Shown in pieces: positions 4,170 through 26,038 of a DNA stretch of 48,300 nucleotides. The translations under genes and the position numbers were made by a program. The stretch is from sequence record SRR31156797_11191; one strand, given 5' to 3'. Position 1 is the first letter of the stretch. Each line of letters starts with the position of its first letter. The notes under the pieces were generated by a model that saw only the letters and a program-made list of their open reading frames with translations, did not search any database and was not told the origin of the DNA.

Positions 4170-4401
4170 TTGCGGCTCCTGCTCTACGGAGGATAAATTT
4201 TCCCCTGACACTACATACTCATCCGGGTGGATTCAAGACGAAAGGATTGTCAGACCTCTTGTGCCTTGCTTAAAATGACCAAATCTACCGATATTATCGA
4301 GTTATCCTATCCATAAGAATCTCATGGAAACTAAACAAAAGAACCTATAAAATAAAAACGGCCACGAAAACACCCGTACACTTCTCCCAGCAGGAGTTCC
4401 T

Positions 4402-4881: not shown

Positions 4882-4904
4882 AAGCTTTAATGCCGGAGGG
4901 CATC

Positions 4905-5971: not shown

Positions 5972-6008
5972 AACAAGGAGTTACAGCATATCACTGTAAC
6001 TCCTTGTT
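5972..6008. repeat. 15-bp perfect inverted repeat (terminator-like; each arm resembles an IHF site)
   Basis: AACAAGGAGTTACAG-catatca-CTGTAACTCCTTGTT. Confidence 0.7.
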
Positions 6009-6188
6009 CGCTTTTACAACTCTTCACAGTTCATCTCAATCCTTCTCCACAAGCCAACTCTTTGAAAAATACATCGGGTTTCCTTTTTTTTATTCATGCT
6101 AAGTCTTTTCAATTGTCGTTCTTTTTGTAAACATCCTTTCTTTCCGACGGGTACAGGCTCGCCATACTATATATTCAGGAGACTATTG

Positions 6189-7067: not shown

Positions 7068-7090
7068 AATACTGAATTCAAAAAAATCAT

Positions 7091-7130
7091 ACCATCCCTG
7101 ATATACACATCAGGGATGGTTTTTTATTTT
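7091..7130 (+). terminator. Intrinsic terminator after map
   Basis: ACCATCCCTGAT-atacac-ATCAGGGATGGT plus T run. Confidence 0.8.
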
Positions 7131-7310
7131 TCATCCATAAATTCAACTCAGAAGCCTCAAATCATCCGCCCCGTATACCTTTGCACCTCTCGCGCAACTC
7201 CTTGTCTTCAGATTCTCCTATGGACTTTTCCTTTCAAACACCTGTATGTTTTTTCTTAATATTTATTGGAGTATCCAAAATTCGTTCTGCTTGAAAACCA
7301 TGGAGGTGTG

Positions 7311-8996
7311 ATGGAATTGTTACGGGCTAATCCGTTCATGGCACTGTTCCTTTCTCTGGCCTTTGGCTATCTGCTGGGGAAAATCAAATTCGGCAAATTC
7401 CAACTCGGGGGCATTGCCGGAACACTGATAGCCGCCGTCATCATCGGGCAGATCGGTCTAAAGGTTGATGAAGGCGTCAAAAGCATCTTCTTCGCCCTGT
7501 TCATCTATGCCGTTGGATACAGCGGTGGCCCACAATTCTTCAGTTCCATCAATCGCTCCACCATCAAACTGGTCTTTGCCGCCATCATGATGACCGTGAC
7601 AGGGCTACTGACCGTTCTTCTTTTCGCACAACAATTCGATCTGGGAGTCGGACTGGCTGCAGGACTGGCCGCAGGTGGCCTGACCCAATCCGCAATCATC
7701 GGCACCGCAGGAAGTGCAATAGACCTGCTGGGGTTAAGCCAAAGTGCGGTGAACAGCTTAAAGGTCGACATCGCGGTGGGCTACTCCGTGACATACATTT
7801 TCGGATCACTTGGACCGATCCTCTTTGTGACGGCAATTCTGCCAATGCTTTACAAGTGGGACATCCGCAAAGAAGCCAAGGCCCTTGCCCACAAACTTGG
7901 CGGTGGAGGTCTCGAACTGAATGAAGGCGAATATCTTCCTTTGTCCCGCATCGTTTCACGCGTGTATCGTGTTGCCGAAGGCGCACCGGTTGTCGGACAC
8001 AATCGCAACTTTCTGGAAGACCTGCACGACGACATGATCCGTGCTGAATCCGTCATGCGCAACGGCGTAGCCGCTGAGCTTGATGATACTTTCAGTTTCC
8101 AGCCAAACGACTTGGTCATGGTAACCGGCCTACGCACGGTGTTACAAAAATGCTCGCCATCCATAGGCCCGGAATACGAAGAAGAGGACGACCTTTTCAC
8201 GCTGGTTGAAGAATCCCGCAAAATATTCATAACCAACAAAGCCTTCCATGGACACACTCTTGAAGAAATCCAACACAGATGTGAAGGAAAGCACTACGGT
8301 GTATACTACACCTCGCTTACTCGCATGGGTCACGCCATGCCCCTGTTGCCCAAAACAGAAATCCATGTCGGTGACGAGATAACGCTCAGTGGTTCCAAAG
8401 AGGACCTCGACAAAGTGGAAAAAGCCATCGGCTACAAGTCCCCTTCAGTCCACGCCACGGAGTTCATGACCTTCGGCCTCGGCATGGTTGTCGGTTACCT
8501 GATTGGCCTTATCTCATTCCATGTCGGTTCTGCAGAAGTGACGCTCGGCAGTGGCCTTGGTTGTCTCGTCGCGGGTCTCGGTTTCGGTTTCCTGCGGATG
8601 AAGCACCCCCATTTCGGCGGCGTTGACTCTGGCGCAGTCAGTTTCCTGCAAAGCTTCGGTCTGGCCGTATTCGTTGGTGTCGTCGGGCTCAATGCGGGCG
8701 CAGAGGCCCTGACAACCATCCAAAAGCATGGGGTCACTCTCCTGCTGCTGGGAGTGGGCGTCACCATGATCCCTCAGTTCGTGACGTTCCTGTTCAACTA
8801 TTATGTATTGAAAATCAAAAATCCCGTCATCGCCCTTGGCGTGGTCACCGGTAGTCGAAGTGCAAACCCGGCTTTTTCCGCACTGCTCGACAAGACGCAA
8901 AACGCCACCCCCGTGGCTGCATTCACCGTGACCTACGCCATTGCCAACATCATGCTGACGCTCTGGGGTCCGGTCATCGTCACGATCCTCCACTAA
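7311..8996 (+). CDS. aspT: Aspartate:alanine antiporter (AAEx/YidE family, TrkA-C domains)
   Basis: GYSGGPQFF and AGGLTQSAIIGTA motifs, duplicated TM halves, adjacent to aspD; ATG 7311 behind GGAGG. Confidence 0.92.
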   Translation: MELLRANPFMALFLSLAFGYLLGKIKFGKFQLGGIAGTLIAAVIIGQIGLKVDEGVKSIFFALFIYAVGYSGGPQFFSSINRSTIKLVFAAIMMTVTGLLTVLLFAQQFDLGVGLAAGLAAGGLTQSAIIGTAGSAIDLLGLSQSAVNSLKVDIAVGYSVTYIFGSLGPILFVTAILPMLYKWDIRKEAKALAHKLGGGGLELNEGEYLPLSRIVSRVYRVAEGAPVVGHNRNFLEDLHDDMIRAESVMRNGVAAELDDTFSFQPNDLVMVTGLRTVLQKCSPSIGPEYEEEDDLFTLVEESRKIFITNKAFHGHTLEEIQHRCEGKHYGVYYTSLTRMGHAMPLLPKTEIHVGDEITLSGSKEDLDKVEKAIGYKSPSVHATEFMTFGLGMVVGYLIGLISFHVGSAEVTLGSGLGCLVAGLGFGFLRMKHPHFGGVDSGAVSFLQSFGLAVFVGVVGLNAGAEALTTIQKHGVTLLLLGVGVTMIPQFVTFLFNYYVLKIKNPVIALGVVTGSRSANPAFSALLDKTQNATPVAAFTVTYAIANIMLTLWGPVIVTILH

Positions 8997-11875: not shown

Positions 11876-14596
11876 ATGCTAAGTAAAACCCTGATTGTAA
11901 ACGGGATTGCCAGAGACATCGTTGCTGACGGAGAGACGACACTTGCTGATATCCTGCGCAAAAATCTGTCCCTGACCGGCACCAAAGTAGGTTGTGACAC
12001 AGGCCATTGCGGAGCGTGCAGTGTCATCGTTGACACCAAGCTCATCCGTTCCTGCTCATACAAGTTCAAGCGGCTCAAACAGCACGCCACAATCACCACC
12101 ATCGAGGGTGTCGGCACACCGGACAACCTGCACCCCTTGCAACTCGCCTGGATTCTCCACGGCGGTGCCCAGTGTGGATTCTGTACCCCCGGTTTCATCG
12201 TCTCAGCCAAAGCACTTTTGGACCTGAACCCCAACCCGACCCGCGAAGACGTCCGCGACTGGTTTCAAAAACACAAAAATGCCTGCCGTTGTACGGGCTA
12301 CAAGCAACTCACCGATTCTGTCATGGACGCGGCAGCCGTCATGCGCGGAGACAAGGACATCAAAGCCCTGTCATGGGAGATGCCCGAAGACCAGCGTATT
12401 TGGGGAACCCGATATCCCAAGCCGTCTGCCGTGGCCAGAGTCACTGGCATGACCGATTTTGGTGCGGACAAGATTCTCAAGATGCCTGAAGATACCTTGC
12501 ATATGGCACTGGTTCAGGCAGAAGTCTCTCACGCAAACATCATCTCCATCGACACCGCTGAAGCTGAAAAGATGGAAGGCGTGTTCAAGGTTGTCACGCA
12601 TAAAGATGTACCGGGCAAAAATCGCATCACCGGATTGATCACTTTCCCCACCAACAAGGGAGACGGTTGGGATCGCCCCATCCTCTGTGACGAAAAAATC
12701 TTTCAGTATGGCGATGCTCTTGCCATTGTCTGCGCAGACACAGAAGCGCATGCAAAAGCCGCAGTCTCCAAAGTCAAGGTCGAGCTTGAACAACTGCCGG
12801 AATACATGAACGCACCGGCAGCCATGGACGATAATGCCATGGAGATTCACCCCGGCACACCGAATATCTATTTTGAACAGACTGTCAAAAAGGGTGAAAG
12901 CACTGAAGCCATCTTCCAAAAGGCTCCGGTCGTGGTTGAAGACGATTTCTACACTCAACGTCAGCCCCACATGCCCATTGAGCCAGATGTCGGGTTTGCT
13001 TACTTTGATGACGAAGAACGTCTGGTTGTCCATTCCAAATCCGTTGGCCTCTACCTGCATCACGCCATGGTTGCCCCCGGTATTGGTATCGAGCCAGACA
13101 AACTCGTCTTGGTGCAAAACCCCGCTGGCGGCACTTTCGGATACAAATTCAACCCGACCATGGAAGCACTGCTCGGTGTCGCGGCACTGGCAACGAAACG
13201 GCCCGTGGCTCTCTGCTATAGTTATGTGCAGCAACAGATTTATACAGGCAAACGCTCCCCTTGGTTCTCCCATCTCAAATTGGCCGCAGACACGTCTGGC
13301 AAACTCCTCGCCATGGATAGCGACTGGACTGTAGATCATGGTCCATACTCGGAATTTGGAGATCTGTTGACCCTGCGAGGCGCTCAGTTCATCGGTTCGG
13401 GCTACAACATTCCCAGCATCAACGGCATTGGCCGCTGTGTTGCCACCAACCACGCCTGGGGTGCCGCCTTCCGTGGTTTCGGTGCCCCCGAAGGGGAATT
13501 CGGTTCTGAAGTGCTCATGGATGAGCTGGCTGAAAAGCTTGGCATGGACCCACTCGAACTACGCTACGCCAACGTCTATAGAAAAGGGTCCACAACCCCC
13601 ACAGGCCAAGAACCGGAAGTCTATTCTCTGCCAGAGATGATCGACATCCTGCGCCCGATATACAAGGAAGCACAAACAAAAGCGGCGGACAACTCCACTG
13701 ACACAGTAAAGCGGGGCGTCGGCGTTTCCATCGGCATCATCTGCGCAGGACTGGACGGCCCGGACCATGGTTCTGCGGACATCGAATTGAACGAAGACAA
13801 CACCGTCACCCTGTACACGACGTGGGAAGATCATGGACAAGGCGCAGATAGCGGCACGACATGCACGGCACACGAAGCTTTACGGCCGCTCAAACTCATG
13901 CCGGAAGACATCCGTCTCGTTTTGAACGACACAGGACGTTGTCCTGACGGAGGTCCCGCCGGCGGCAGTCGTTCGCAGGTCATTGTCGGAAACGCAATCG
14001 TCGATGCATGTAAAAAACTGTTGGCAGGCCTGAAGACTGACGACGGAACTTTCCGCACCTATGACCAAATGGTGGAGGAAGACCTTCCTCTTCGATACAG
14101 CGGTTCATGGACCGCTCCAGCCGAAGCCTGCGGCCTTGACGGGCAGGGAAATCCCTTTGTCTTCTATATGTATGGTCTGTTCATGGCCGAAGTGGCCGTC
14201 ACATTGGAGACTGGCGTCACGGAAGTTGAAAAGATGACGCTAGTCGCAGACATCGGCACCGTGGGTAACAAGCTCATCGTCGATGGTCAGATGTACGGTG
14301 GCATTGCCCAAGGCATCGGCATGGCCCTGTTCGAAGACTTCGAGGACATCAAGAAGCACTCGACCATGCTCGGAGCTGGTTTCCCCTACATCAAACAAAT
14401 CCCGGACGATATGGACCTGATCTACGTGGAAACGCCTCGCAAAGAAGGACCTTTCGGCGCATCTGGCGTAGGGGAACTTCCTCTGACCACGCCTCACGCC
14501 GCGGTCATCAACGCCATCACTCAGGCATGTGGTGTCCGCATCACCAAACTTCCAGCCCGGCCTGAAAAAGTCCTTGCCGCATTGAAGAATCAATAA
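11876..14596 (+). CDS. mop: Molybdopterin-dependent aldehyde oxidoreductase (Mop/xanthine oxidase family)
   Basis: 2x[2Fe-2S] motifs (GCDTGHCGAC, QCGFCTPG, CRCTGY), GGTFGYKF, AFRGFG, GGSRS, SGVGELP; 906 aa. Confidence 0.93.
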   Translation: MLSKTLIVNGIARDIVADGETTLADILRKNLSLTGTKVGCDTGHCGACSVIVDTKLIRSCSYKFKRLKQHATITTIEGVGTPDNLHPLQLAWILHGGAQCGFCTPGFIVSAKALLDLNPNPTREDVRDWFQKHKNACRCTGYKQLTDSVMDAAAVMRGDKDIKALSWEMPEDQRIWGTRYPKPSAVARVTGMTDFGADKILKMPEDTLHMALVQAEVSHANIISIDTAEAEKMEGVFKVVTHKDVPGKNRITGLITFPTNKGDGWDRPILCDEKIFQYGDALAIVCADTEAHAKAAVSKVKVELEQLPEYMNAPAAMDDNAMEIHPGTPNIYFEQTVKKGESTEAIFQKAPVVVEDDFYTQRQPHMPIEPDVGFAYFDDEERLVVHSKSVGLYLHHAMVAPGIGIEPDKLVLVQNPAGGTFGYKFNPTMEALLGVAALATKRPVALCYSYVQQQIYTGKRSPWFSHLKLAADTSGKLLAMDSDWTVDHGPYSEFGDLLTLRGAQFIGSGYNIPSINGIGRCVATNHAWGAAFRGFGAPEGEFGSEVLMDELAEKLGMDPLELRYANVYRKGSTTPTGQEPEVYSLPEMIDILRPIYKEAQTKAADNSTDTVKRGVGVSIGIICAGLDGPDHGSADIELNEDNTVTLYTTWEDHGQGADSGTTCTAHEALRPLKLMPEDIRLVLNDTGRCPDGGPAGGSRSQVIVGNAIVDACKKLLAGLKTDDGTFRTYDQMVEEDLPLRYSGSWTAPAEACGLDGQGNPFVFYMYGLFMAEVAVTLETGVTEVEKMTLVADIGTVGNKLIVDGQMYGGIAQGIGMALFEDFEDIKKHSTMLGAGFPYIKQIPDDMDLIYVETPRKEGPFGASGVGELPLTTPHAAVINAITQACGVRITKLPARPEKVLAALKNQ

Positions 14597-14664: not shown

Positions 14665-15681
14665 ATGAAAACTGTTCCTGTTCAAAAAGCCATCGGCATG
14701 GTCCTATGTCATGACATGACACAAATTATACCCGGTGAAATCAAGGGACCAGCTTTCAAAAAAGGCCATGTCATTGCCGAAGAAGACATCTCCAAACTTT
14801 TGGAGATCGGCAAAGAACACATCTATGTGCTCAACATGGAAAAAGGACGCATCCACGAAAACGAAGCAGCTGAACGCATTGCCAAAGCAGCAACCGGACC
14901 GGGGATCACTCTTTCAAATGTCAGCGAAGGAAGGATAAACTTCATCGCTTCACCCGGTCTGCTCGATATCAACACCGAAGCCCTAAACCGCATCAACTCC
15001 ATTGAAGAAGTTGTTCTTGCTACCATGCACGATGGTCAGCAGGTCACGGAATCACATCCCGTTGCCGGAACACGAGTGGTCCCGCTGGTCATTGATGAAA
15101 AGAAAATAGAACAGGTTGAAGCGATCTGTGCCGAGTACCCATATGTGGTCGGTATTCGTCCATTCCAACATCACAACGTGGGACTGGTGACGACAGGGAG
15201 CGAAGTCTATCACGGGCGCATTACGGACAAATTCGGTCCAGTCATCCGAAAAAAATTTTCCACACTCGGCTCCTCAGTCATGGACCAGCGTCTGACCTCG
15301 GACGATCCAGCCATGACCCGTGACGCCATTCTCGCTTTCATTGCCGAAGGCGCTGAAATGGTCGTGGTAACTGGTGGCATGTCCGTGGACCCGGATGACC
15401 AGACACCTACAGCCATTCGAGCAACAGGAGCCGATGTCGTCACATACGGCTCCCCAACATTCCCCGGCGTCATGTTCATGCTGGCAATCAGGGACGGCGT
15501 ACCCATTCTGGGATTGCCCGGATGTGTCATGTATTACCGGGCATCCATTTTCGATCTCGTAGTCCCTCGTCTTCTGGCCGGAGAACATGTCACGCGGGAA
15601 ACAATCGTCGGCATGGGGCACGGCGGCTTCTGCGCAGGCTGTGACGTTTGCCGTTATCCAACTTGTCCCTTTGGCAAATAA
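14665..15681 (+). CDS. Molybdopterin-binding (MoeA-like) protein
   Basis: GMVLCHDMT, TTGSEV, TGGMSVDPDD, YGSPTFPG, GLPGC, C-terminal CAGCDVCRYPTCPFGK. Confidence 0.88.
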   Translation: MKTVPVQKAIGMVLCHDMTQIIPGEIKGPAFKKGHVIAEEDISKLLEIGKEHIYVLNMEKGRIHENEAAERIAKAATGPGITLSNVSEGRINFIASPGLLDINTEALNRINSIEEVVLATMHDGQQVTESHPVAGTRVVPLVIDEKKIEQVEAICAEYPYVVGIRPFQHHNVGLVTTGSEVYHGRITDKFGPVIRKKFSTLGSSVMDQRLTSDDPAMTRDAILAFIAEGAEMVVVTGGMSVDPDDQTPTAIRATGADVVTYGSPTFPGVMFMLAIRDGVPILGLPGCVMYYRASIFDLVVPRLLAGEHVTRETIVGMGHGGFCAGCDVCRYPTCPFGK

Positions 15682-15713: not shown

Positions 15714-15746
15714 AAGGCCGACCAACAAGTATAGTTGGTCGGCCTT
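15714..15746. terminator. Terminator hairpin between convergent operons
   Basis: AAGGCCGACCAAC-aagtata-GTTGGTCGGCCTT preceded by an A run (T tail on the minus strand). Confidence 0.8.
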
Positions 15747-15762
15747 ATGAATTTGATATGTA

Positions 15763-16317
15763 TTAAGCGTTTTTGACGTAAAGAATGGACTGGGTACTCA
15801 TTTTCTTGATCACCTGCTTGCCTTTGGCCTCAGCTTGCATCAGAAGAATTTCCTTTTCGCCGAAACTGAGTGCTCCTGTCAGACAGACATCAACACAAAC
15901 CGGATCCAGACCGTGAGTCACGCGGTCATAACAGAGATTGCACTTGTGTGCGTAATTCTCTTCCTTATTGAACTGAATGACATTGTACGGACACTTGTCG
16001 ATGCACTCGCCGCAACCAGTACACTTCTCTGTGTCGATAAGCACGATACCGGTCTGTGGGTCCTTGGATATAGCATCGTATTCACATGCCTTGGCACACG
16101 GGTACTTCTTGCAGTGCTGGCACATGACGACCCAATAGTCTTCACGCAATTCAGGATAGGTTCCTTCCAATTTACTTTCTACCCGAAGATAATTTGCCAT
16201 GGCTCCGGGTTGATCATTCTCGTGGTCGATTATTTCGTGATGATTCCGGCAAGCCACGATGCAGGTCTTGCAACCGATGCAGCGGTCCAGATCCACCATA
16301 ATGCTGAGTTGTCTCAT
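15763..16317 (-). CDS. 4x[4Fe-4S] electron-transfer subunit (DmsB/PsrB/NrfC-like)
   Basis: CIGCKTCIVAC, CQHCKKYPCAKAC, CTGCGECIDKCP, KCNLC...PVCVDVC. Confidence 0.92.
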   Translation of the reverse strand: MRQLSIMVDLDRCIGCKTCIVACRNHHEIIDHENDQPGAMANYLRVESKLEGTYPELREDYWVVMCQHCKKYPCAKACEYDAISKDPQTGIVLIDTEKCTGCGECIDKCPYNVIQFNKEENYAHKCNLCYDRVTHGLDPVCVDVCLTGALSFGEKEILLMQAEAKGKQVIKKMSTQSILYVKNA

Positions 16318-16329
16318 TTCACACCCCTC

Positions 16330-18465
16330 TTATTTGTATATCTTGACTCGAGTCGAGACATGCGCCTCGCCGCCGCGCATATCCTGTTCGTCCAACGTGG
16401 AACCGGCATCGGCAATCAATTCATTGTCGCCTATCCACTTGCCGCGAGATGCCACCTTGCCCATGGTCTGACCAAATCCGTGAATGATGCCCGCGCAACC
16501 GGGAATAATCTTTTCAGTCAACATGACAGGGACCTCAACAGAACCTGTACCTGATGCCATGGTCACGGTATCGCCATCAGAAATACCGAGTTTTTTCGCA
16601 TCAAGAGGATTCAGGAGACAGGGGTTGGCGTCGAGACCGGATACGGGGTCACGAAGCTGTGCGTTATTCTGGGACCATGCGCCGGTATTGTTCAGGAAAA
16701 TGGTCCTAAAATTAACAAGAATGAATGGGAACTCATCTTCACCACGACGATATTCCAGCGGCAGTTTGGGACTGGGCCACTTCTGGTCAATGTCCTCGTA
16801 CATCTGCCATTCCAACTCGATCTTGCCGGATGGTGTATTGAATTTTCCGTTATCTTCATATTTACGAAAACCAACAGCTCCCGGCGACCAAAGACCACCG
16901 TTCTCTTGGAGTGTCTTGACGGACATACCCACACCGGACAATTCGATGTCGTAATATTCTACATCGTCCTTAAACGCGAAGTACTCGGGGAACATGCGCT
17001 GACCAAGCTCAATGAACACACGGTTGGCATGTCTGGACTCACCGATGGGATCAACAACTGGCTGACACAGCGCCGCACAATGACCAAAGTTGTACCACCA
17101 CGGCATGTAGAGTAATTCCCACCGCTCAAAGTTGGTCTGATCAGGCAGAACGAGGTCGGCCCATTTCATGGTTTCCGACGGCATAATCTCGGTCACGACA
17201 AGCAGTTCCAGCTTGTAGTCGCCATTCTCGTCCTTCATGGTCACGGCCTTACGCCATTCGCCTGACCCCATTTCGGACAGAGCCGGGTTGCACTCCGAGG
17301 CAAAGAAGACCTTGAGGGTGTCGTCCTTGATGGCCTGTGCCGCATACCACGTCGGTTGCAGGAAGAAGTTGTAATTATCAAATTTTTCCCTGTTATTACC
17401 TGACCGATGATAGCCAAGCTCTGTAACATCAGGTGCCGGAGGAACGGGTTCAACCGCTGCCATGGGTGCGATGTCTGGCAAGGGCTGCCCCCCTGGGTTG
17501 TCCAGATTGCCGGTAATGACAAGGAAGATGGACCAAGCGTGTCCCCAATCCATGGCGTTCCCGTACATGATGGATTTGAACGCGTCGATACAGGCACTGG
17601 GAGCCTCGGCAACCATCTTGGCGAGCTTGATGATATCCTCGGCCGGGACATCACAAATCTTGCTCATGGCTTCCGGTGTCTTGTCCTTGATGTATGCCAT
17701 CAGGCCGTCCATGTCGCCTTCACGAACCCACTTGTCACAGAACTTCTTATCATGCAGATCATTCAGCAACAGGTAGTTGCAAACTCCCAAAAACAGCGAT
17801 GCGTCTCCACCGGGCTTAATGGGAATCCACCAATCCGCCTTGGATGCTTCCGTACGATAAATGGGATCGATAACAATGAGTTTTGCCCCGCGCTCCTTTG
17901 CGTCGAGAATATAACTAGGTACTGCGGCATCATCCAGACAACCGAACGGATGACGACCGGACAGAATCATCAGGCCGCCCTTGGGCACCGTGTGATACAT
18001 GGGGGCGATGTGATGATTGGGAAAACAACCGAACGTATGCATCATGGCCATGATCTTTCCCGAATCGCAATGAGGCAGGCCGGTCGAGATGAAGCCTCCG
18101 GCAGCATTGACAAAACGCCACTTCGGATCGGTCACGGAATGTGGAAACATGGAATAGGTAAATTTGTGGGCCTCACCGCGATCACGCAGTTCGGTCAACT
18201 TTGTTTCCATGATGTCCATGGCTTCTTCCCAAGTAATGCGCTCGAACTTTCCACTGCCACGCTCCCCTACACGCTTCATGGGATGCTTGAGACGCTCGGA
18301 CGAATACAACGAAGTGATGCCAGCCATCCCTTTGACGCAGGCCTTGCCGCGTCCGCGAGGATTTCCCTTCACTTCCTTGACGACACCATTCTCTACACGC
18401 GCCAAAATGGCACATTCAGCTTTACACTGATAGCAGACAGTTGGAATCCACCCATCTTGATACAT
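16330..18465 (-). CDS. Mo/W-bisPGD (DMSO reductase superfamily) oxidoreductase catalytic subunit, no Tat signal; substrate unknown
   Basis: CYQCKAEC...CVKG Fe-S, RLKHPMKRVGERG, IDP...ADWWIPIKPGGD, SETMKWADLVLP, FNTPSGKIEL, LNPLDAKKLGI. Confidence 0.9.
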   Translation of the reverse strand: MYQDGWIPTVCYQCKAECAILARVENGVVKEVKGNPRGRGKACVKGMAGITSLYSSERLKHPMKRVGERGSGKFERITWEEAMDIMETKLTELRDRGEAHKFTYSMFPHSVTDPKWRFVNAAGGFISTGLPHCDSGKIMAMMHTFGCFPNHHIAPMYHTVPKGGLMILSGRHPFGCLDDAAVPSYILDAKERGAKLIVIDPIYRTEASKADWWIPIKPGGDASLFLGVCNYLLLNDLHDKKFCDKWVREGDMDGLMAYIKDKTPEAMSKICDVPAEDIIKLAKMVAEAPSACIDAFKSIMYGNAMDWGHAWSIFLVITGNLDNPGGQPLPDIAPMAAVEPVPPAPDVTELGYHRSGNNREKFDNYNFFLQPTWYAAQAIKDDTLKVFFASECNPALSEMGSGEWRKAVTMKDENGDYKLELLVVTEIMPSETMKWADLVLPDQTNFERWELLYMPWWYNFGHCAALCQPVVDPIGESRHANRVFIELGQRMFPEYFAFKDDVEYYDIELSGVGMSVKTLQENGGLWSPGAVGFRKYEDNGKFNTPSGKIELEWQMYEDIDQKWPSPKLPLEYRRGEDEFPFILVNFRTIFLNNTGAWSQNNAQLRDPVSGLDANPCLLNPLDAKKLGISDGDTVTMASGTGSVEVPVMLTEKIIPGCAGIIHGFGQTMGKVASRGKWIGDNELIADAGSTLDEQDMRGGEAHVSTRVKIYK

Positions 18466-18504
18466 AACGTTCTCCTGTTGTTATCGCAGAAAACACATTT
18501 TCAT

Positions 18505-18636
18505 TTACTTTTTATGACTATCTTCTTTAAAGCGGTATTTTTTTCTATACGCATTCCCGATGATCCAAATAAACGCCCATACAGCGATGAAGACGCCCCA
18601 GATCAACGGATTAAAAGGACTGTAATCGAAGTTCAT
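18505..18636 (-). CDS. Small single-TM protein, 43 aa (not in the ORF track): MNFDYSPFNPLIWGVFIAVWAFIWIIGNAYRKKYRFKEDSHKK
   Basis: AAGGAGG RBS; ATGA overlap with the FNT stop; hydrophobic helix followed by a basic tail. Confidence 0.75.
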   Translation of the reverse strand: MNFDYSPFNPLIWGVFIAVWAFIWIIGNAYRKKYRFKEDSHKK

Positions 18637-19610
18637 TCCACCTCCTTAAGTTCCCCGTCGGCAGCCATGAATTCATGACGTTTGCGGTACAAATCCTTGA
18701 GTTTGAGGGGGTCTGCCACCAACTGGAACACAACCGCCACGAAAAGCGTTCCACCAATAGCATTACCCATGATTGTAAAGAGTTGGTTATGTGCCCAGCC
18801 AAACTTGCCGAACCCCCAGTGCATCAGCACTGGAACGACGTTGTTCATACCGGAAACAGCCTCAACCCACATGTCTTGTTGAAAAAGCGGTACGGCCAAA
18901 AAGCCGATATTCGCTATGCAGTGTTCATTCATGCCTGCCACAAAGGCCAGAGGGCCATATGCTGTCAGGACGATTTTGCTCATATCATCATTGGTTTTCA
19001 TGAAAAGGATGGCTGCGGACTGCAGAGTCCAAGTACAAATTATACCCATGACAAAGATTTCCATGGCGGTCTCGCCGGTCTTTGCCAGGCCAATTTCATG
19101 GGCTCGCATAAGCCAAGGCAGGGCGTGATAACCGCCGCCTTTACTCATAATCCACATGAAGGTCATGGAGCCTATGAAATTACCAATATATCCCACAAAG
19201 ACACCCCAGACGAACTGTCGCCAAGTGATGCGATCCTGAAACACTCCAACCAACCCATAGGCCATGTCTGCCGTGACAAGCGTCATTCCGCTGAACATGA
19301 TAATGACCAACGAGAACATAAATACGAGTCCCATGAGCAGATTGGCCAAGCCCGGTGCCAAACTACTCGGTACCCCGGCAGAAACAGCCAATGCCAGCAT
19401 GGCACCGAAGCAAACAAATGCCCCTCCCGCAAAAGCGGAAAGTAGAAAGGCCAGCGGCCTTTTTCGCAGCATTCCCCACTTCTTGTCACATACGTCTGCG
19501 ACTTCCATCAGATGTTTTTCAGGACTCAAAGGCATCCAATTCTCCCATTCGAAGGGATACGCCTCTGATATAATAGCGCATCCCCTCACTCTCTCAGCAA
19601 TCGCTTGCAT
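18633..19610 (-). CDS. Formate/nitrite transporter (FNT) family channel
   Basis: AGGAFVCFG, GLVF, LVTAD (LFT-like), GNFIGS, GIICT, EHCIAN, GNAIGG; probable start ATG 19610. Confidence 0.9.
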   Translation of the reverse strand: MQAIAERVRGCAIISEAYPFEWENWMPLSPEKHLMEVADVCDKKWGMLRKRPLAFLLSAFAGGAFVCFGAMLALAVSAGVPSSLAPGLANLLMGLVFMFSLVIIMFSGMTLVTADMAYGLVGVFQDRITWRQFVWGVFVGYIGNFIGSMTFMWIMSKGGGYHALPWLMRAHEIGLAKTGETAMEIFVMGIICTWTLQSAAILFMKTNDDMSKIVLTAYGPLAFVAGMNEHCIANIGFLAVPLFQQDMWVEAVSGMNNVVPVLMHWGFGKFGWAHNQLFTIMGNAIGGTLFVAVVFQLVADPLKLKDLYRKRHEFMAADGELKEVE

Positions 19611-19816
19611 GGTTATCCTGTCTTTCCACCAGCCAGCGCCGTGCACTGCGCGCAGACGTTTTTCGTCGTCCACACAAATAAGAGCCATGGGCACAGAAAA
19701 AAGTTACCTGTATAAGGATAAAATATGAAAGTTTTATAAAAAACCTAACAAAAAAGGGGTGTTGAGAGGTGTCTTTTTTTAAAGGACAGAAAGAGGAAGA
19801 AAAGCGTGGTCCTTCT

Positions 19817-21178
19817 TCAACAAAATTCATCACAAACGAATTCATCAAGATCACACGAGGAAGACAGGACACCACTGGCAATGGCCAATTGCATAAACTC
19901 ATGAATACGCCCCCGATCAGGACTCAAATCATCAAATGTGACAATTTTTTCTTCAAGGACTTTGGCTGCAAGATCTCGAGATACGCCGGTATACACAGCC
20001 TGGGTTGCGGCACAGTAGTCAATATCCGTGTGAAGCTTGTCTCTGGCCTGATATAAAATACGGACATAATCACTCACCAGTTCAGGATAAGCATTAAAAA
20101 AGTCCTCACGAACGGCAACCACACAGCAGATATGTCCCGGCGCAATCTCCTTGGAACGAATCTGCACATCAGCTCCGCCTTCACTGAGGCACTTCGTACT
20201 CCACGGTTCGGCACAAAAAAAGGCGTCTATCAACTGTCGCTTCAAGGAACTGATGACGTAGGAAGGGTTGGTATCAGCAGTACTGACGTTGCCCCAATTC
20301 CCCGGTTGATCCTGGGCCAACTTGCCGAGCAGGACACGATGCGTAGAATATTTGCCAGGGACGCCCACAAGCTTCCCCTCCAACTTTTCTGCAGAAGTTG
20401 TCAACGAACTCCCATCGTGATGCCCATCCATGATGTATTTGAGCGGTGTCCCGGAATTGCACAACTGCATGGCCAGAGGTGCCATGATAAATGCCGCGTT
20501 GATTGTTCCCTGACGCAAAGCATTGGCAAGTGCGGTCCAGGACAGAAATCGCTTCATGTGGATCCGGGAATTGCGCCCCATACCAAGGCGATGGGCCACC
20601 ATACCCAGCAAATGATCCGATATGGGAAGATAACCGACCTTGATGGCGGGTTCACTGACATGCTTTTCCAACATACTAGAAAGTAATGGGCGAGCACTGT
20701 GCAACCGCTTGCGTACGGTTCCTCTTTTCAAAGAAAGGGCATCAGCAACTTCTCCCACTGAATAGCCGGATTCAAAATAAAGTTGGCAGACATCCCGCAA
20801 CGGCTCAGACAACTTTAAAATAGCCTGACTAGCCGTAGCGCGAAAGCACTTGGATTCATAACTCAATAAAGGGTCAAAAGACTTCGGGGCAAGAGGCTCG
20901 AAACGAGCCAGACTCTCCAGAGATATTTCTCGCCCTCGGACTCGCAACTGCCGATGACACTGAGACACGACTATCGCCTTGAGCCAAGCGGGGAAACGGT
21001 CCACTTCACGCAGTTGATCCAACCGGGAATAGGCTATGAGTAAAGATTCTTGAACAACATCTTGCGCCTCATCAGAGGAACCAAGCATACGGTTAGCATG
21101 AGCGAGAATGCCGGGCATCAACCCGGTAATAAGTTCGTTCATCCCGCGAACATTCGTCTGTTCTTCAAAGTATCCCAT
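19817..21178 (-). CDS. ECF sigma factor fused to a C-terminal NrtA/CmpA/NasS-type anion-binding domain
   Basis: Sigma2 DEAQDVVQE..FPAWL; sigma4 GYSVGEVADAL...GTVRKRLHSAR; then KVGYLPISDH, SWTALANAL, MAPLA, STH, AEPW, GHICCV. Start uncertain (21202, 21178 or 21142). Confidence 0.85.
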   Translation of the reverse strand: MGYFEEQTNVRGMNELITGLMPGILAHANRMLGSSDEAQDVVQESLLIAYSRLDQLREVDRFPAWLKAIVVSQCHRQLRVRGREISLESLARFEPLAPKSFDPLLSYESKCFRATASQAILKLSEPLRDVCQLYFESGYSVGEVADALSLKRGTVRKRLHSARPLLSSMLEKHVSEPAIKVGYLPISDHLLGMVAHRLGMGRNSRIHMKRFLSWTALANALRQGTINAAFIMAPLAMQLCNSGTPLKYIMDGHHDGSSLTTSAEKLEGKLVGVPGKYSTHRVLLGKLAQDQPGNWGNVSTADTNPSYVISSLKRQLIDAFFCAEPWSTKCLSEGGADVQIRSKEIAPGHICCVVAVREDFFNAYPELVSDYVRILYQARDKLHTDIDYCAATQAVYTGVSRDLAAKVLEEKIVTFDDLSPDRGRIHEFMQLAIASGVLSSSCDLDEFVCDEFC

Positions 21179-21461
21179 GGGTCGGACGCACTCCACGTTC
21201 ACTTAATCAACTATTCAGACCTATTACGTATAGCGGTATATCAAGAAAAATAATTAGTCGAGAAAAAACGAAGAACCAAAGTTGCCTTTCACTTTTTATG
21301 AAAAAAAGCAGGACACCAAAAGAACAGTTCAAGTCATTATTTCAGACATATAACGCCACTGTTTATGTCTTTTCATCGCGAATAAAAAATAAAATATATA
21401 ATATGACTAAAAGGTCTAGATGGATATCTTGAGCGTGAATAAAACTTTAAGGGAGTATCCT

Positions 21462-23522
21462 ATGGCGTTCAAAGATCTTTCACTGAAGATAAAAATCGGG
21501 GGAAGTGTTTGTCTTATCGTTTCCCTCATCCTCGTGGTGTACACAGCGATTGTCGTCTCAAAGACACAAACCATTTCTATTGATTCCGCCAAGGAAATAG
21601 CGGATGAGATGGCCAACCGGTATGGCAATCAAGTCAAAAACAACATTGAAAAAGCACTTGATGCGTCTATCACAACTGCCGCCATATTCGGAGGCATGGT
21701 CAAGGACCGTGATATCATCGATCGCACCATCATCGACGAAATCCAAAAACAGGTCGCTCTTTCCGATGACACATTCTATGGAATTCAGTCCTGCTTCGAG
21801 CCAAATGCTCTTGATGGCAAGGACGCCGAATTCCACGCGACAGGTGACCCCATGTGGGAACACATGAATGGTGCTTACGGCAACTATTGGTGGAAGGAAG
21901 GCGGCACACTGAAAGTCGTGAACCTTACCAAATATGATTATCCAAATACGCGCGCATGGTATAAAGGCCCTCGAGACAAGGATGGACCGTTCCTGACGGA
22001 ACCGTATTACACTGAGGTTGCCAAGACGAACATGTCCACCATCAGTGTCCCTATCCGGGAAAATGGTAAGTTCATCGGTATTGTCGGCATCGACTTTGTT
22101 TTGAGTGCTTTCCAGAAAATGGTCGATGGCATCAGGCCCATGGAAAGCGGTTACGCCTTCATCGCTTCAAATAAAGGCTACTGTGTGGCCCACCCGGACA
22201 GCAATATTGTTGGTAAAAGCATTGCCGAGGCTTTCCCGCCTGAGCTAAAAACCACCATCCTCTCTTCATTGGAAAATGGCAAAAAATTTGAAGGGTTTAT
22301 TGTATCACCGCTGGACAACATGGAATATCTTTTCGAATTACAGCCGATTTTGATAAACGGAACAGGTTCCCCATGGTCCATTGGTATCGCCATTCCCAAA
22401 GACAAGATTCATGAAGACGCCGACGCCTTCCTGTATCTGAGTGTTATCCTGACCATAGCCGCAATTCTTCTGGTCGTGGTTGTCGTTGTTCTGCTCGCAA
22501 GGGCCATCACCAGTTCCCTGATCAAGGCCGTCGAATTCGCCAAGGAAATTGCCGCAGGCAATCTCATGGCGCAACTCGATATCAACCAGAAGGACGAAAT
22601 TGGTGTCATGGCCTCAACACTCGCTGACATGGGTGCAAACCTCAGAAGTGTTGTCGGCGAAGTCAGAGGGGTAACGAACAATGTCGCCTCTGGATCAGAA
22701 GAACTGTCTTCCACCTCCATCGCGCTTTCACAGGGTGCAACCGAACAAGCGGCCTCCATTGAGGAAGTTTCCTCCAGCATGGAAGAAATGGCCTCCAATA
22801 TCAGCCAGAATGCTGAAAACGCTGCCCAGACACAAACCCTTGCGGACGGCGCTGCCAAACAGGCAGAAGAGGGCGGCGAAGCTGTATCCGAAGCCGTCAC
22901 TGCCATGCGGGAAATTGCGGACAAGATCAGCATCATTGAAGAAATAGCCCGACAGACCAACCTGCTCGCCTTGAATGCGGCCATTGAAGCTGCCCGCGCA
23001 GGCGAACACGGTAAAGGTTTTGCGGTGGTCGCAGCCGAAGTCAGAAAGCTGGCGGAACGTTCAGGTGTCGCTGCGGGTGAAATCAGCCTGTTGGCAACCG
23101 AAAGCGTAGACGTGGCTGACCGTGCAGGCGAACTGCTTGGCAAGTTGGTCCCGGACATCCAACGCACAGCTGAACTGGTCGAAGAGATCACCACTGCCAG
23201 CAATGAGCAGAATGCAGGTGCCTCCCAGATCAATACAGCGATTCAGCAACTCGACAGCGTTGTGCAGCAAAACGCCGCAGCCTCGGAAGAGATGTCTTCG
23301 ACATCATCCCAGCTGTCCGCTCAGGCCACACAGCTCCAGTCCACCGTCTCCTTCTTCAAACTTGATGAAGGCGGTTACCAGCAACCCAGGCAAGTCGTAG
23401 CAACCAGGAAGCCTGCACAAGCTCTGAGCACAACACAGTCTGCTCCTCAGGCTCCAACCCAGAGCGCACAAGGTGGTGTCGCATTGGAAATGAATGAGGA
23501 CGAAGACTTCGAACGGTTCTAA
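21462..23522 (+). CDS. Methyl-accepting chemotaxis protein (Cache sensor, HAMP, MCP signal, C-terminal DFERF pentapeptide)
   Basis: Two TM helices, WY..P...TEPY Cache motif, [37 protein letters not shown] 21462 behind GGGAG. Confidence 0.95.
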
Positions 23523-23668: not shown

Positions 23669-24313
23669 TTACGCCTTCTTTTCCCATTCCTCTACTTCAA
23701 AGCCCTCGGGAACTTCTTCCCAACCGGAGAACATGGCCGCAATATGCGCGGTGACAGAATGTCCAGTGGTCGTCATGTAAACGTGAACAATAAGGAAGAT
23801 AAGGATAGAAAACCCGCCAATCAGATGCAACAAACCTATCACTTCAAGTGAGAGGAACGACAACCCCCAATTGGCCCAATCGTTGTATCCCCAGTACAGA
23901 AAACCGGTCACCATCTGGAATGGCAACAGCATGGCCGTCAATGCCAGATAGGTCAGTCGCTGCATGGGATTATGTTTTGCGCTCTTGGACTTGTGCACAG
24001 GGTGCTCTTCTCCCTTGAAGATGCCTGATCCATAATACATGGCCACCTCGAAAAGCTTCTTGGTGGTCGGAATATATTGTTTGTATTCGTGGGTTACGAA
24101 CATCCAAAAGGCAAAGAAGAAGAACATGCCGAGCCACAACAGCCCCAGGGTGTTGTGCAGATCAACCGCCCCCATGAAACCGAACAGCTCAAACGTACCA
24201 TGTACTTCAAAACCAGTGGCCAGAAGCAGGATAATCATGATGGCTTGAAACCAGTGCCAGAAACGCTCAAACTTGGAATACAGGTATATTTTTTTCATTG
24301 ATTGTTGACTCAT
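23669..24313 (-). CDS. Di-heme cytochrome b membrane subunit (PhsC/HydC-like), partner of the OTR
   Basis: ERFWHW, LH, HNPMQRLTY, LH...HVYM heme-b His pattern; four TM helices; 3 bp after the otr stop. Confidence 0.88.
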   Translation of the reverse strand: MSQQSMKKIYLYSKFERFWHWFQAIMIILLLATGFEVHGTFELFGFMGAVDLHNTLGLLWLGMFFFFAFWMFVTHEYKQYIPTTKKLFEVAMYYGSGIFKGEEHPVHKSKSAKHNPMQRLTYLALTAMLLPFQMVTGFLYWGYNDWANWGLSFLSLEVIGLLHLIGGFSILIFLIVHVYMTTTGHSVTAHIAAMFSGWEEVPEGFEVEEWEKKA

Positions 24314-24316
24314 GGA

Positions 24317-26038
24317 CTAATCCTCCTTCCTTCTGAGACCGGAGACAAAGCGCATAATGCCATGAATGATAACAGCCAATAATGCGGCTCCTGCGCCAAA
24401 CCACCCTGCGGAATCCACAAGCTGATACTTGTCCCGACCCGGCATATAGAATCCAGTCAGGTCCTTGAGTCGCCCTTCAGGATTATGGCACTGGGCGCAC
24501 TTCAGCGCGTTCTCGCGGGGTGCAACCATATGTGTGGTCGGGAAAGCGTAGGTCGTTTCCACAAACCCGAATTCACCACTGTATTTCTGTCCGGCATATT
24601 TCATGCCCACTTCAATGGATTTTTCCCAGTCAAACCCCTTCCAGTATGCAGTCTTGTCCTTCTTGTCGAAGGGGAAAAGATGCGGAATGACCATGGTCTT
24701 GTTGACCTTGTCATATGGAGACATGGCCCGATGCACTTTGAACGGCATGATGCGGGAATTCGGGTCTTTCCTGTCGCCGTTTGGCCGATTCAGCCAGACT
24801 TCCCCGGTAGGATCGATGGCATCTTCGGTGGTGACGTGATCCATGGTCCCGTCGAACCAATAATATTCAGGTACAACATCCTTTTCCCAGACAAACTCAC
24901 CCTTTTTCTTCAAAAATACCGGCTTACCATCTGGCCCCTTGATCTTGGCTTTACCGTCCATAAGTTGTCCTGCTTTGGACCAATCCCACCACATCTTGGT
25001 GGATTGGGCACGAGCAAATTCAGGAATATGGCATGACTGACACGCCACCTTGTCGGTATGATCATTCAACTTGGAGAACATACCGCCGCTCATGTGGGGC
25101 TGACTACCGTGGCAGGATTCACACATGATTTTGTCGCCAAGGTCATCCTGAAGCAGACTCTTGCGTTCCAAAGCCGCAGGCTTCTCATAAATACGCCCGG
25201 CGACATGGTGGTTGCGTGTAGTGTGACAACGGGTACAGGCAAAGTCCTGACCGCCGGACTCCTTGGTCCCCATATGGACATCAAGATTCTTGTCAGGTTT
25301 GACCAAGGAGGAATCAAGATCGCCGTGCTTGACCGCGTCAGCCCCACCACCAAAGAAATGGCAGGAACCGCAGTTCTTGCGTTCCGGGCGGCCAACGGAT
25401 TGGGCAACCTTGGCCCAGTCAGGTGCATAATAGGTCTTGCCGTTTGATTTGAAGACCACGCCCTTCTGCGTACCCGGATTTTCCGGGTCCTCGACATATT
25501 TGGCGGGATAACCCGCACCGGACGGAAACTTTTTGTAGGTTCCGGTTTTTTCGTGACAGACAAGACAGTCGACTTTTTCCTGAGAGGTAAAGTCAAAGCT
25601 GTTGTCCTTCCATCCATAACCGGCATGACATGATGTGCAACGAGCCTCGTTGCTTGCGGTGTTTATTCAAAAATTGTTGACGGATATTCCGCCCTTGCCG
25701 AACTTTGCCGGATTTCCGGCTTCGTCTTCATCCCGCCATGTCCAATGAATAGTCTGATGAAACTGCAAAGCCGCCTTGTTGTGACAACCAAGGCAGGCTT
25801 GCGTGACCTCTTCAGGTCGCATGGTCTTTTGTTTTTCCGGATCAAATTGCAGTTGTGCGAACTTGCTGTGATCAGCCGTAATTGTCTGAATCAGCGGTTT
25901 CGCCTTAGTCGCCTGAATGGCCAACGTTCTGCCCGGCGCGTTCTCGTGCTCCACTGCGGCCCATGCGCTCCCGGCATGAACCATCACGAACAACACCGCG
26001 AGGACCGTCAACAGCCATCGCCGATTGCAAATGGTCAT
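24317..26038 (-). CDS. otr: Octaheme c-type cytochrome, tetrathionate reductase (OTR) family, 573 aa, in-frame UGA at codon 124 (probable selenocysteine)
   Basis: Signal peptide, AGGAGG RBS, eight CxxCH (CLGCH, CTSCH, CLVCH, CGSCH, CTRCH, CESCH, CQSCH, CAQCH) in one frame; the only interruption is TGA at 25667-25669 in GKGGISVNNF*INTASNEARCTSCHAGYGW. Confidence 0.9.
25637..25653 (-). promoter_or_regulatory. Putative bacterial SECIS hairpin
   Basis: GCAACGA-GGC-UCGUUGC starts 13 nt after the UGA; the G-starting apical loop is 20 nt from the UGA. Confidence 0.75.

Follow-up and report, generated by a model that had tools for sequence, protein, structure and literature searches.

Gene content and layout of the locus

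The 48,300-nucleotide stretch of DNA analysed here (sequence record SRR31156797_11191, referred to as the window) carries on its minus strand, within 15763-21178, five genes that encode an extracytoplasmic function (ECF) sigma factor fused to a substrate-binding protein (SBP), a channel of the formate/nitrite transporter (FNT) family, a membrane micro-protein, the catalytic subunit of a molybdenum or tungsten (Mo/W) enzyme and an iron-sulfur (Fe-S) subunit (Table 1). These genes are referred to below as the module. The host is a Pseudodesulfovibrio, a sulfate-reducing bacterium. G001, the nearest compared genome, encodes a Mo protein with 100% identity to the one in the window, and a protein that bears the name of P. 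nedwellii has 98% identity to it. The Pfam domains are Sigma70_r2, r4_2 and NMT1_2 in the fusion protein, Form_Nir_trans in the channel, Molybdop_Fe4S4, Molybdopterin and Molydop_binding in the catalytic subunit, and Fer4_11 in the Fe-S subunit.

An earlier description of the window, made from the sequence alone (the original prediction), reported five co-oriented open reading frames (ORFs) on the minus strand, and their coordinates agree with this, as do the gaps, which measure 12 nucleotides (nt) from the Mo to the Fe-S gene and 39 nt from the micro-protein to the Mo gene, and the ATGA overlap of the FNT and micro-protein genes. The terminator that it placed at the end of the set corresponds to a strong terminator-like hairpin directly past the Fe-S stop codon, and all of its domain assignments are upheld by Pfam. 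Its treatment of the five genes as one set stands in that they are co-oriented and adjacent, but a 281-nt spacer after the sigma gene divides them into two transcription units, as discussed below.

Table 1. Features of the module in the window
Feature	Position	Strand	Product or detail
Fe-S subunit	15763-16317	minus	184 residues
Mo/W catalytic subunit	16330-18465	minus	711 residues
Membrane micro-protein	18505-18636	minus	43 residues
FNT channel	18633-19535	minus	300 residues from proposed ATG; longest ORF extends to 19694
ECF-type promoter (predicted)	19681-19707	minus	-35 element GTAACTTTT at 19707-19699; -10 element GCTCT at 19685-19681
ECF sigma-SBP fusion	19817-21178; alternative GTG start at 21202	minus	453 or 461 residues
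Intrinsic terminator-like hairpin	15714-15746	minus	13-bp stem with 8 G-C pairs, then T-run

Conservation of the module and exchange of its channel

Within Pseudodesulfovibrio, close orthologues of the Mo protein (at least 63% identity) are present in 6 of the 19 genomes searched; other families of the order yielded one orthologue with 61% identity and a 73%-identical fragment at a contig end (G030). All five genes are syntenic in four congeners (G019, G005, G006 and G007), and the FNT, micro-protein, Mo and Fe-S genes are found together in a fifth (G011). Only the Mo and Fe-S genes occur in G025 and in a second copy in G019. This second copy (L010, G019:C1:1541600-1555732) has 92% identity in the Mo and Fe-S proteins, lacks genes for the channel, the micro-protein and the sigma factor, and adjoins a MoeA-like gene.

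A pattern scan that used one genome per species gave 79 loci. Their hosts are Desulfovibrionaceae, Desulfomicrobium, Desulfocapsa, Desulfobulbaceae, Desulfobacterales, Desulfatiglandales, Desulfomonilaceae, Syntrophobacteraceae, Syntrophaceae, Anaerolineae, Coriobacteriia, Victivallales and Chloroflexota. In 78 of these loci the next gene after the Mo gene is that for the Fe-S subunit, and the exception (L080) stops 1 base past the Mo match. Gene content was compared in the 50 loci, designated full loci, whose sequence reaches at least 3 kb to the 5' side of the Mo gene and 2.9 kb to its 3' side. An FNT gene lies directly upstream of the Mo gene in 21 of these and an HPP gene accompanies it in 26, whereas none has both and three have neither; the HPP-family membrane protein (PF04982) occupies the position of the FNT or stands after the Fe-S gene. 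The FNT channel of the original prediction is thus interchangeable with an HPP-family channel, which stands in for it elsewhere. The sigma-SBP gene is directly upstream in 29 full loci that belong to several orders. In 13 full loci the Fe-S subunit carries a GltD-like module (Fer4_20 and Pyr_redox_2), a fusion that points to direct coupling to NAD(P)(H). These fused subunits have about 665 residues and are found in one clade (L055, L063, L065, L074 and others); L074 has two of them in tandem.

These features were mapped on a maximum-likelihood tree of 46 Mo proteins, comprising the window and 45 loci that remained after exclusion of those with short flanks, truncated Mo hits or internal stops. 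The minimum number of changes is eight for the type of channel, of which seven are forced by branches with Shimodaira-Hasegawa-like approximate likelihood ratio test (SH-aLRT) values of 95 or more, seven for the presence of the sigma gene and one for the GltD fusion. FNT and HPP have thus replaced each other repeatedly while the enzyme stayed the same, and nothing else argues as strongly that both membrane proteins serve it in the same way. In terms of gene neighborhood, the grouping of channel, sensor-sigma and enzyme proposed in the original prediction is syntenic across orders and phyla, far beyond chance.

A link to stress genes was considered and dropped, since HSP20 recurs in only two loci. 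Genes for a chaperonin (Cpn60), HSP20, Lon and an M48 peptidase stand beside a few modules that have no sigma gene (L089:4132-6343, L074:4242-7462 and L071:6780-7763).

Catalytic and Fe-S subunits

The Mo protein belongs to the dimethyl sulfoxide reductase superfamily, with Pfam scores of 76.5, 54.2 and 35.8 bits that are all above the cut-offs. Its family comprises at least 232 clusters (90% identity) at E <= 1e-50; the 120 that were listed span bacterial phyla at an identity of about 60% or higher, and one record among the listed relatives is labelled Promethearchaeota (Asgard). In 12 members from several phyla, which have a mean column identity of 77%, the FS0 cysteines (Cys11, Cys14, Cys18 and Cys43), Lys15 and Cys133 are invariant. 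The reading frame is open for only five codons ahead of the ATG (716 versus 711 residues), and the N-terminal sequence M-x-x-D-G-W-I-P-T-V-C-Y-Q-C is kept in the relatives. The protein therefore has no twin-arginine translocation (Tat) signal, and the enzyme is expected to be cytoplasmic.

The best match in the PDB is the polysulfide reductase subunit PsrA from T. thermophilus (2vpw, E 1.5e-61), followed by acetylene hydratase (1.7e-32) and FdhF (2e-31), and a profile search gives the same ranking. Cys133 and His109 align with Cys173 and His145 of PsrA, and Arg332 of PsrA corresponds to an invariant lysine, Lys297 (T. thermophilus numbering for PsrA). We take Cys173, the Mo ligand, and His145 and Arg332 to be the active-site residues of PsrA. 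Every NCBIfam equivalog model scores the Mo protein far under its cut-off. An identity as acetylene hydratase was rejected: the C-Q-S-C-D sequence of that enzyme is replaced here by an invariant C-Y-Q-C-K, and the position of the aspartate after the second FS0 cysteine, presumably the catalytic residue of the hydratase, is occupied by Lys15, as in the electron-transfer type. No membrane anchor of the NrfD type (PsrC/PhsC) was identified in the window cluster with Pfam and NCBIfam or in the annotated neighbor clusters. On hidden Markov model and PDB scores, the Mo protein is classed as a redox enzyme of a clade of its own whose nearest characterized relative is PsrA/PhsA. The original prediction that the set is unlike the Nap, Nar, Nas, Fdh, Psr/Phs, Ttr and Arr operons is supported, and the enzyme represents a separate and highly conserved Tat-less clade.

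The Fe-S subunit matches Fer4_11 (1.4e-28) and scores under the cut-offs of the DmsB, formate dehydrogenase (FDH) beta and NrfC models. It begins directly with its first cluster motif and has no signal peptide. By its sequence it is a four-cluster [4Fe-4S] electron-transfer subunit of the DmsB/PsrB type.

FNT channel and its putative partner

The channel is a member of the FNT family (PF01226, 149.5 bits versus a cut-off of 34.6), and its pore threonine and the histidine of its E-H-C-I-A-N sequence align with those of NirC and FocA. It scores below the cut-offs of both the FocA and the NirC equivalog models, so that no subfamily is assigned, and all of its solved relatives are distant; the nearest are LCIA (NAR1-type) and NirC with E values of about 7e-13, followed by FocA and HSC at about 1e-9.

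Each of the 32 FNT-bearing loci listed has a micro-ORF of 41-82 residues in the interval from the FNT gene to the Mo gene. The encoded proteins share an N-terminal D-Y-S-P-F-N-P-x-x-W sequence, one hydrophobic helix and a basic K-Y-P-x-Y-P tail, and a stricter regular expression recovers 27 of the 32. There is no match to a family in Pfam or NCBIfam, the best score in the ESM Atlas (0.84) is under the useful range, and tblastn found no micro-protein in the HPP loci. Structure prediction of a complex between the FNT and the micro-protein gave an ipSAE of 0.90 in three runs, as compared with 0.01 for the best control; this mark was reached by 51 of 78 solved complexes and by 2 of 108 mismatched pairs. 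The score expresses the confidence of the model. The three runs share at least 91% of contacts, with a predicted local distance difference test score (pLDDT) of at least 83 for the partner, and place the interface on residues 95-105, 156-161 and 242-283 of the FNT. None of the 13 solved FNT structures that were matched is listed with a partner chain, so the score is unlikely to reflect memory of a solved structure. The micro-protein is therefore predicted to be a conserved single-pass partner of the FNT channel.

Sigma-SBP fusion protein

The N-terminal part of the fusion is a sigma factor (TIGR02937, 67.7 bits versus a cut-off of 42.9) that contains only regions 2 and 4 (Sigma70_r2 and r4_2), the composition of the ECF (group 4) sigma factors; in a profile search, solved ECF sigmas match residues 10-190. 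The C-terminal part is a binding domain that matches NMT1_2 (PF13379) with 67.4 bits versus a cut-off of 24.7. The sequence shows no membrane segment that would separate the two domains, and the AlphaFold2 model of the fusion has a mean pLDDT of 83.9. At least 158 clusters belong to the sigma-SBP family at E <= 1e-20, and all 120 of those listed have generic names or none.

An alignment of 20 homologues identifies as invariant D196-H197, H261-H262-x-G-S, S286-T287-H288, F-C330-x-E-P-W and H357-x-C359-C360. The closest solved structure to the binding domain is 3UN6 (E 9.9e-42 with the family profile), followed by the regulatory domains of CmpC and NrtC (about 1e-19), TauA (1e-9), NrtA (2e-8), SsuA (about 1e-7) and CmpA (9.5e-6). 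Foldseek also places 3UN6 first, with a template modeling (TM) score of 0.87, and its ranking agrees with that of the profile search. The profile alignment indicates that the G-H-H-x-G, S-T-H and C-C motifs are common to the sensor family and 3UN6. These motifs and the closest fold place the sensor domain in a 3UN6-like, putatively metal-binding subgroup of SBPs. The original assignment to an NrtA/CmpA/CynA/NasS type is thus right as to the NrtA fold, but the domain belongs to this subgroup with invariant His and Cys motifs and is probably not of the plain NrtA type.

In the relevant parts of two papers on Ni-dependent carbon monoxide dehydrogenases (CODHs), 3UN6 from S. aureus is described as a zinc-binding protein whose function is given as unknown and as the closest structural relative of ATP-binding cassette (ABC) transporter binding proteins encoded beside clade-B CODHs (PMC6344411, PMC13592312). 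The text of one of them describes an AlphaFold 3 model of such a binding protein that coordinates a metal through two Cys and either one or two His residues (PMC13592312). A similar point was made for the C-C motif in SaoX of the SAO system (preprint 10.1101/2022.07.06.499078).

Promoter and transcription units

The spacers that separate the sigma gene from the gene after it were searched for dyads, which identified a promoter motif of ECF type that reads GTAACTTTT-N13-GCTCT in the window. A relaxed regular expression for this motif matches 31 of 43 sigma-to-operon spacers and none of the 41 regions ahead of sigma genes. It is matched 3.0 times per kb in the spacers as compared with 0.035 times per kb over 2.17 Mb of loci (both strands). 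The strict form has 26 matches in these loci; each is on the coding strand, lies 94-1309 nt upstream of the Mo start and stands ahead of the first operon gene. Only 2 of 31 loci without an adjacent sigma gene contain the relaxed motif. A search of the whole 3.7-Mb genome of G001 with the window-type pattern gave a single match, at the module locus, and the reversed control gave none.

The motif overlaps the GTG codon (19694) that begins the longest FNT ORF. This ORF has 353 residues, as compared with 292-317 (median 293) in homologues. The overlap, the lengths of the homologues and a GGGAGA ribosome-binding site together place the start of the FNT at the ATG at 19535, so that the protein is likely to have 300 residues and the 353-residue ORF to be too long. 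It is this start that leaves the spacer after the sigma gene and hence two transcription units. A short inverted repeat (GACG..CGTC, 19650-19668, minus strand) lies just past the promoter in the predicted 137-nt operon leader, whose 5' end is expected at about 19672.

Because the sigma gene has no such motif upstream, the sigma factor is probably not autoregulated, and its regulon is probably the module operon alone. From position and co-occurrence we infer that the sigma factor drives the operon promoter. Induction of the operon by the sigma factor, as originally predicted, thereby gains comparative support in the form of a conserved ECF-type promoter exactly between the sigma gene and the operon. 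Two observations count against this assignment: 12 of the 43 spacers are not matched by the relaxed regular expression, and 21 of the 50 full loci have the module without a sigma gene.

Proposed link to clade-B Ni-CODHs

A scan with an alignment of the module HPP proteins identified 24 loci that have HPP genes with 44-69% identity but no Mo module, in hosts that include Desulfosporosinus, Pelotomaculum, Maridesulfovibrio and Desulforhopalus. A gene for a CooS-type Ni-CODH of about 677 residues adjoins the HPP gene in 17 of these loci, and 19 have a gene for a GAF sigma-54 activator. The cluster of all three is found in loci among L122-L163, for example in L146 with CooS at 3838-5838, HPP at 5980-6744 and the regulator at 6870-8537. 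All 17 HPP-linked CooS proteins have glutamate at the position of Cys333 of ChCODH-II, and all retain the positions of His93, His261, Cys295, Cys446, Cys476, Cys526 and Lys563, residue numbers that, apart from Cys333, we take to be those of this enzyme. In the portions of a 2026 structural paper that bear on this, replacement of Cys333, with the same numbering, by the carboxylate residue Glu is the hallmark of clade-B CODHs, and their substrate is called unknown (PMC13592312). The main text of a survey of CODH gene contexts does not mention an association with HPP (PMC6344411).

The common HPP channel type and the common 3UN6-like type of binding protein suggest, as the simplest reading, that the module and the clade-B Ni-CODHs probably use the same anion. 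Two results stand against the overall reading of the module given below. Among 19 congeners, six have the module, three have a clade-B-like CooS and none has both, although by a hypergeometric estimate the probability of zero overlap by chance is about 0.3, which is not significant and makes the comparison uninformative. According to the main text of the structural paper, in which the word nitrite is absent, the enzyme of R. flavefaciens (RfCODH), the one clade-B CODH that has been studied, was active with hydroxylamine but did not turn over nitrate, carbonate or CO2 (PMC13592312).

Proposed mechanism and candidate substrate

Comparison of the loci leads us to favor, with some reserve, a reading in which the module is a self-contained, inducible set that converts one small, monovalent anion of a weak acid by redox chemistry in the cytoplasm. 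The sigma gene would be transcribed alone, and its product would be a one-component regulator in which the ECF sigma factor is held back by the fused, probably metal-containing NrtA-fold domain. Binding of the anion to this domain in the cytoplasm would release the sigma factor, which would then fire the promoter that comparison has identified. This would lead to expression of the FNT channel, its 43-residue partner, the Tat-less PsrA-like Mo/W enzyme and the four-cluster Fe-S subunit. The channel, or HPP in other lineages, would link the enzyme to the outside pool of the anion. The enzyme would catalyze a two-electron atom transfer. Electrons would travel by way of FS0 and the Fe-S subunit, with carriers of the ferredoxin type as donors or acceptors; in the clade with the GltD-like fusion they would be exchanged directly with NAD(P)(H).

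Among the possible substrates we place nitrite, or an N-oxyanion close to it, at the head, although we put it forward tentatively. It leads because nitrite is the sole anion with documented evidence of transport or response for both FNT and HPP proteins. The nearest solved relatives of the FNT, NirC and LCIA, also point to nitrite. Passages of one paper report HPP proteins as nitrite transporters in cyanobacteria and chloroplasts and describe two HPP genes of Kuenenia that rise under nitrite limitation (PMC7438415); in part of another, an HPP gene of Desulfovibrio desulfuricans, located next to hcpR1, is NO-induced (PMC5701242). In our ranking N-oxyanions are followed by sulfur or selenium anions, with formate in third place. 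Several considerations weigh against nitrite. We know of no bis(pyranopterin guanine dinucleotide) (bis-PGD) enzyme that has nitrite as its physiological substrate. Formate and HS- also pass FNT channels, and specificity has been established for very few HPP proteins. The closest relatives of the enzyme act on sulfur, selenium and arsenic anions, and the enzyme keeps the PsrA-like Cys and His positions. Finally, the SsuA sulfonate-binding model scores the sensor domain as high as NMT1_2 does.

We also suggest, as a doubtful possibility, that the PsrA-like Mo/W enzyme and the clade-B Ni-CODHs are analogous catalysts of one unrecognized pathway of anaerobes. This pathway might be a two-electron conversion of a small weak-acid anion, such as the abstraction of an oxygen atom from nitrite towards nitroxyl, N2O or hydroxylamine, or might act on another anion that resembles CO2 or nitrite. 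Its three interchangeable supply systems would be the FNT with its micro-subunit, the HPP channel and an ABC importer whose binding protein contains zinc, and its switch may represent the first ECF sigma factor to sense a ligand directly through a fused binding-protein fold.

Alternative explanations

The last points listed against nitrite speak at the same time for a sulfur or selenium anion, with the enzyme acting as a cytoplasmic polysulfide, thiosulfate, sulfite or selenite oxidoreductase, which we consider unlikely. Examples would be the reduction of sulfane sulfur or thiosulfate with exit of HS- through the channel, or SoeAB-like oxidation of sulfite in disproportionation; the Cys/His-rich sensor would respond to a reactive form of sulfur. 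The nearest characterized relatives are PsrA and the PhsA model, the Mo-ligand cysteine and the position of PsrA His145 are conserved, and the sensor has an invariant vicinal Cys pair in addition to its match to SsuA. One FNT subfamily is a hydrosulfide channel, and the hosts include sulfur disproportionators, namely Desulfocapsa (L035 and L036) and D. sulfodismutans (P0015). However, the PhsA model (NF012032) gives the window protein only 236.9 bits versus a cut-off of 694, as compared with 450.7 and 438.5 bits for two paralogues in G001, and the PsrC/NrfD anchor, the Tat signal and the arginine equivalent to PsrA Arg332, replaced by lysine, are all missing. The module is also found in Anaerolineae, Coriobacteriia and Victivallales, and the enzyme in the Promethearchaeota record, groups for which we know of no dissimilatory sulfur metabolism. 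Thiosulfate and sulfate are divalent and poor substrates for FNT channels, and to our knowledge, which on this point does not extend to a search, no sulfur anion has been shown to pass an HPP protein.

It is less probable again that the enzyme is a cytoplasmic reductase for nitrate, or an anion of the chlorate type, that acts on nitrate that has leaked in, with the FNT or HPP expelling nitrite to periplasmic NrfA-type enzymes and the sensor detecting cytoplasmic nitrate, as do NasS and the NrtC regulatory domain. Abstraction of an oxygen atom from nitrate is standard bis-PGD chemistry, and the solved cytoplasmic NrtA-fold sensors that were matched bind nitrate (9uai) or belong to the bicarbonate transporter Cmp. 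Nitrite is linked to both channel families, a tight tie of channel and enzyme suits a toxic product, and in its link to NAD(P)H one variant is similar to nitrate reductases of the fermentative or assimilatory kind. These points are set against scores far under the cut-offs of the nitrate reductase models (115.6 versus 1100 bits for NasC, 60 versus 930.55 for NapA and 19.5 versus 1084.15 for NarG) and conserved neighbors that include no nitrate importer. Moreover, RfCODH, which is associated with the same type of binding protein, did not reduce nitrate according to the main text of the paper (PMC13592312).

Several database names imply that the module pairs a FocA-like channel with a cytoplasmic formate dehydrogenase or CO2 reductase of a non-canonical kind, a reading that we regard as improbable. 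An FNT gene beside those for an FdhF-sized Mo enzyme and a HycB-like Fe-S protein does recall the core of formate hydrogenlyase, the FDH alpha model aligns from end to end, and FdhF of E. coli is accompanied by GltD-type partners (names AegA and YgfT). Formate-trading syntrophs are among the hosts, and the sigma-54 activator at some loci may be compared with FhlA. Both catalytic residues of formate dehydrogenases, however, are missing: the residue after the ligand Cys133 is an invariant aspartate, Asp134, instead of histidine, and the arginine of the PLRGQNN sequence of formate dehydrogenases aligns with the invariant Pro330. The formate dehydrogenase model TIGR01591 scores 174.5 bits versus a cut-off of 666.25, PsrA scores clearly above any formate dehydrogenase, and the genomes that have the module already contain selenocysteine-type FDH paralogues.

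The idea that the adjacency is coincidental, the sigma-SBP protein regulating something else and the small ORF being no gene, would accommodate the full loci that have no sigma gene (21 of 50) but is already disfavored, and very improbable, in view of the sigma-SBP gene directly upstream in 29 of the 50 across several orders, the confinement of the promoter motif to the sigma-operon spacer with a single occurrence in a whole genome, and the conservation of the micro-ORF in 32 of 32 FNT loci.

Neighboring genes and antisense ORFs

Long ORFs are present on the plus strand within the Mo (17407-18678, 423 residues), Fe-S (15835-16554, 239 residues) and FNT (18675-19445, 256 residues) genes. These antisense ORFs are most likely shadows of the coding strand; comparable ones misled a simple ORF caller in GC-rich relatives.

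Two plus-strand genes are convergent with the module. One (11876-14596) encodes a molybdenum hydroxylase of 906 residues that resembles aldehyde oxidoreductase, which we take to be the size of D. gigas MOP, and the other (14665-15681) encodes a MoeA-like protein; both are kept as neighbors in G019. On the other side, a methyl-accepting chemotaxis protein with a dCache sensor (21420-23522, plus strand) is encoded divergently from the sigma gene and stands beside the module only in G019 and G005. It might sense the anion of the module or be a chance neighbor. A multihaem cytochrome c (PF11783, 380 residues) and a membrane partner of cytochrome b561 type are encoded at 23669-25459 on the minus strand, 2.5 kb from the module. 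In the remainder of the window no further gene linked to nitrogen or sulfur metabolism was identified.

Relationship to known systems and significance

The module resembles several known systems in part. The best relative of its catalytic subunit is found in PsrABC/PhsABC (2vpw and the PhsA model), with which it shares FS0, the Cys ligand of Mo, the histidine at PsrA-145 and a four-cluster beta subunit, but the module enzyme has no Tat signal and no NrfD subunit, has lysine in place of Arg332, comes with a channel and a sigma factor of its own and is far under the family cut-off. Like FocA-FdhF-HycB, it has an FNT gene beside those for a cytoplasmic Mo enzyme of about 715 residues and a small polyferredoxin, but it lacks the selenocysteine/Cys-His dyad, the arginine and a hydrogenase, and its FNT is no closer to FocA than to NirC. 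SoeABC, set beside the module by description only, likewise lacks a Tat signal, faces the cytoplasm and joins a bis-PGD enzyme to an Fe-S subunit; it differs in having the membrane anchor SoeC, which the module does not have, and in the much larger size of SoeA.

In regulation, the closest parallels are NasS-NasT and the C-terminal domains of NrtC and CmpC (8wm7, 9uai and 9uak), in which a cytoplasmic anion sensor with an NrtA fold controls a regulator or transporter, whereas the domain in the module is fused in cis to an ECF sigma factor and belongs to the His/Cys-rich 3UN6 subgroup. The ECF41 (SnoaL), ECF42 (TPR) and CorE-type (Cys-rich) sigmas are likewise one-component regulators with no adjacent anti-sigma gene; the account of extensions in the review that covers them names only SnoaL, TPR and Cys-rich types as studied, whereas the extension in the module is a whole periplasmic-binding-protein fold and is not among the studied types in that account (PMC8103513). 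Operons of clade-B Ni-CODHs with ABC transporters of NitT/TauT type, as described in part for RfCODH of R. flavefaciens, share with the module a 3UN6-like binding protein, a cytoplasmic two-electron metalloenzyme, anion uptake and the HPP type found beside CooS. They differ in that the catalyst of the module is Mo/W bis-PGD and not Ni-Fe-S and its binding domain is a sensor and not a transporter subunit.

The literature searched as full text, outside subscription journals and supplements, contains no description of the cluster, of the enzyme clade or of an ECF sigma factor with an NMT1/NrtA-type extension, and database names are generic or, where they read "formate dehydrogenase" or "thiosulfate reductase", wrong. 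As far as these searches extend, novelty lies in the combination, in the clade that the enzyme forms, in the extension of an ECF sigma factor by a binding protein, in the FNT micro-subunit and in the link to clade-B CODHs, and the parts are all of known kinds. The inference made in the original prediction, that the channel imports a small anion that the fused sigma factor senses in the cytoplasm to induce a dedicated redox enzyme, is partly supported: it holds in outline and is sharpened in detail, and the architecture and regulation are well supported by comparison of sequences.

The module brings to light a new enzyme family that is spread across bacterial phyla. A sigma factor that is fused to a whole ligand-binding fold and has a regulon of one operon would be attractive both for the study of mechanism and as an orthogonal sensor part. 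The predicted micro-protein subunit matters for FNT channels in general, since every solved FNT that was matched consists of the channel chain alone. The module also offers a handle on the question of the clade-B CODH substrate, because its soluble sensor domain and its one-operon promoter could be used to identify the anion.

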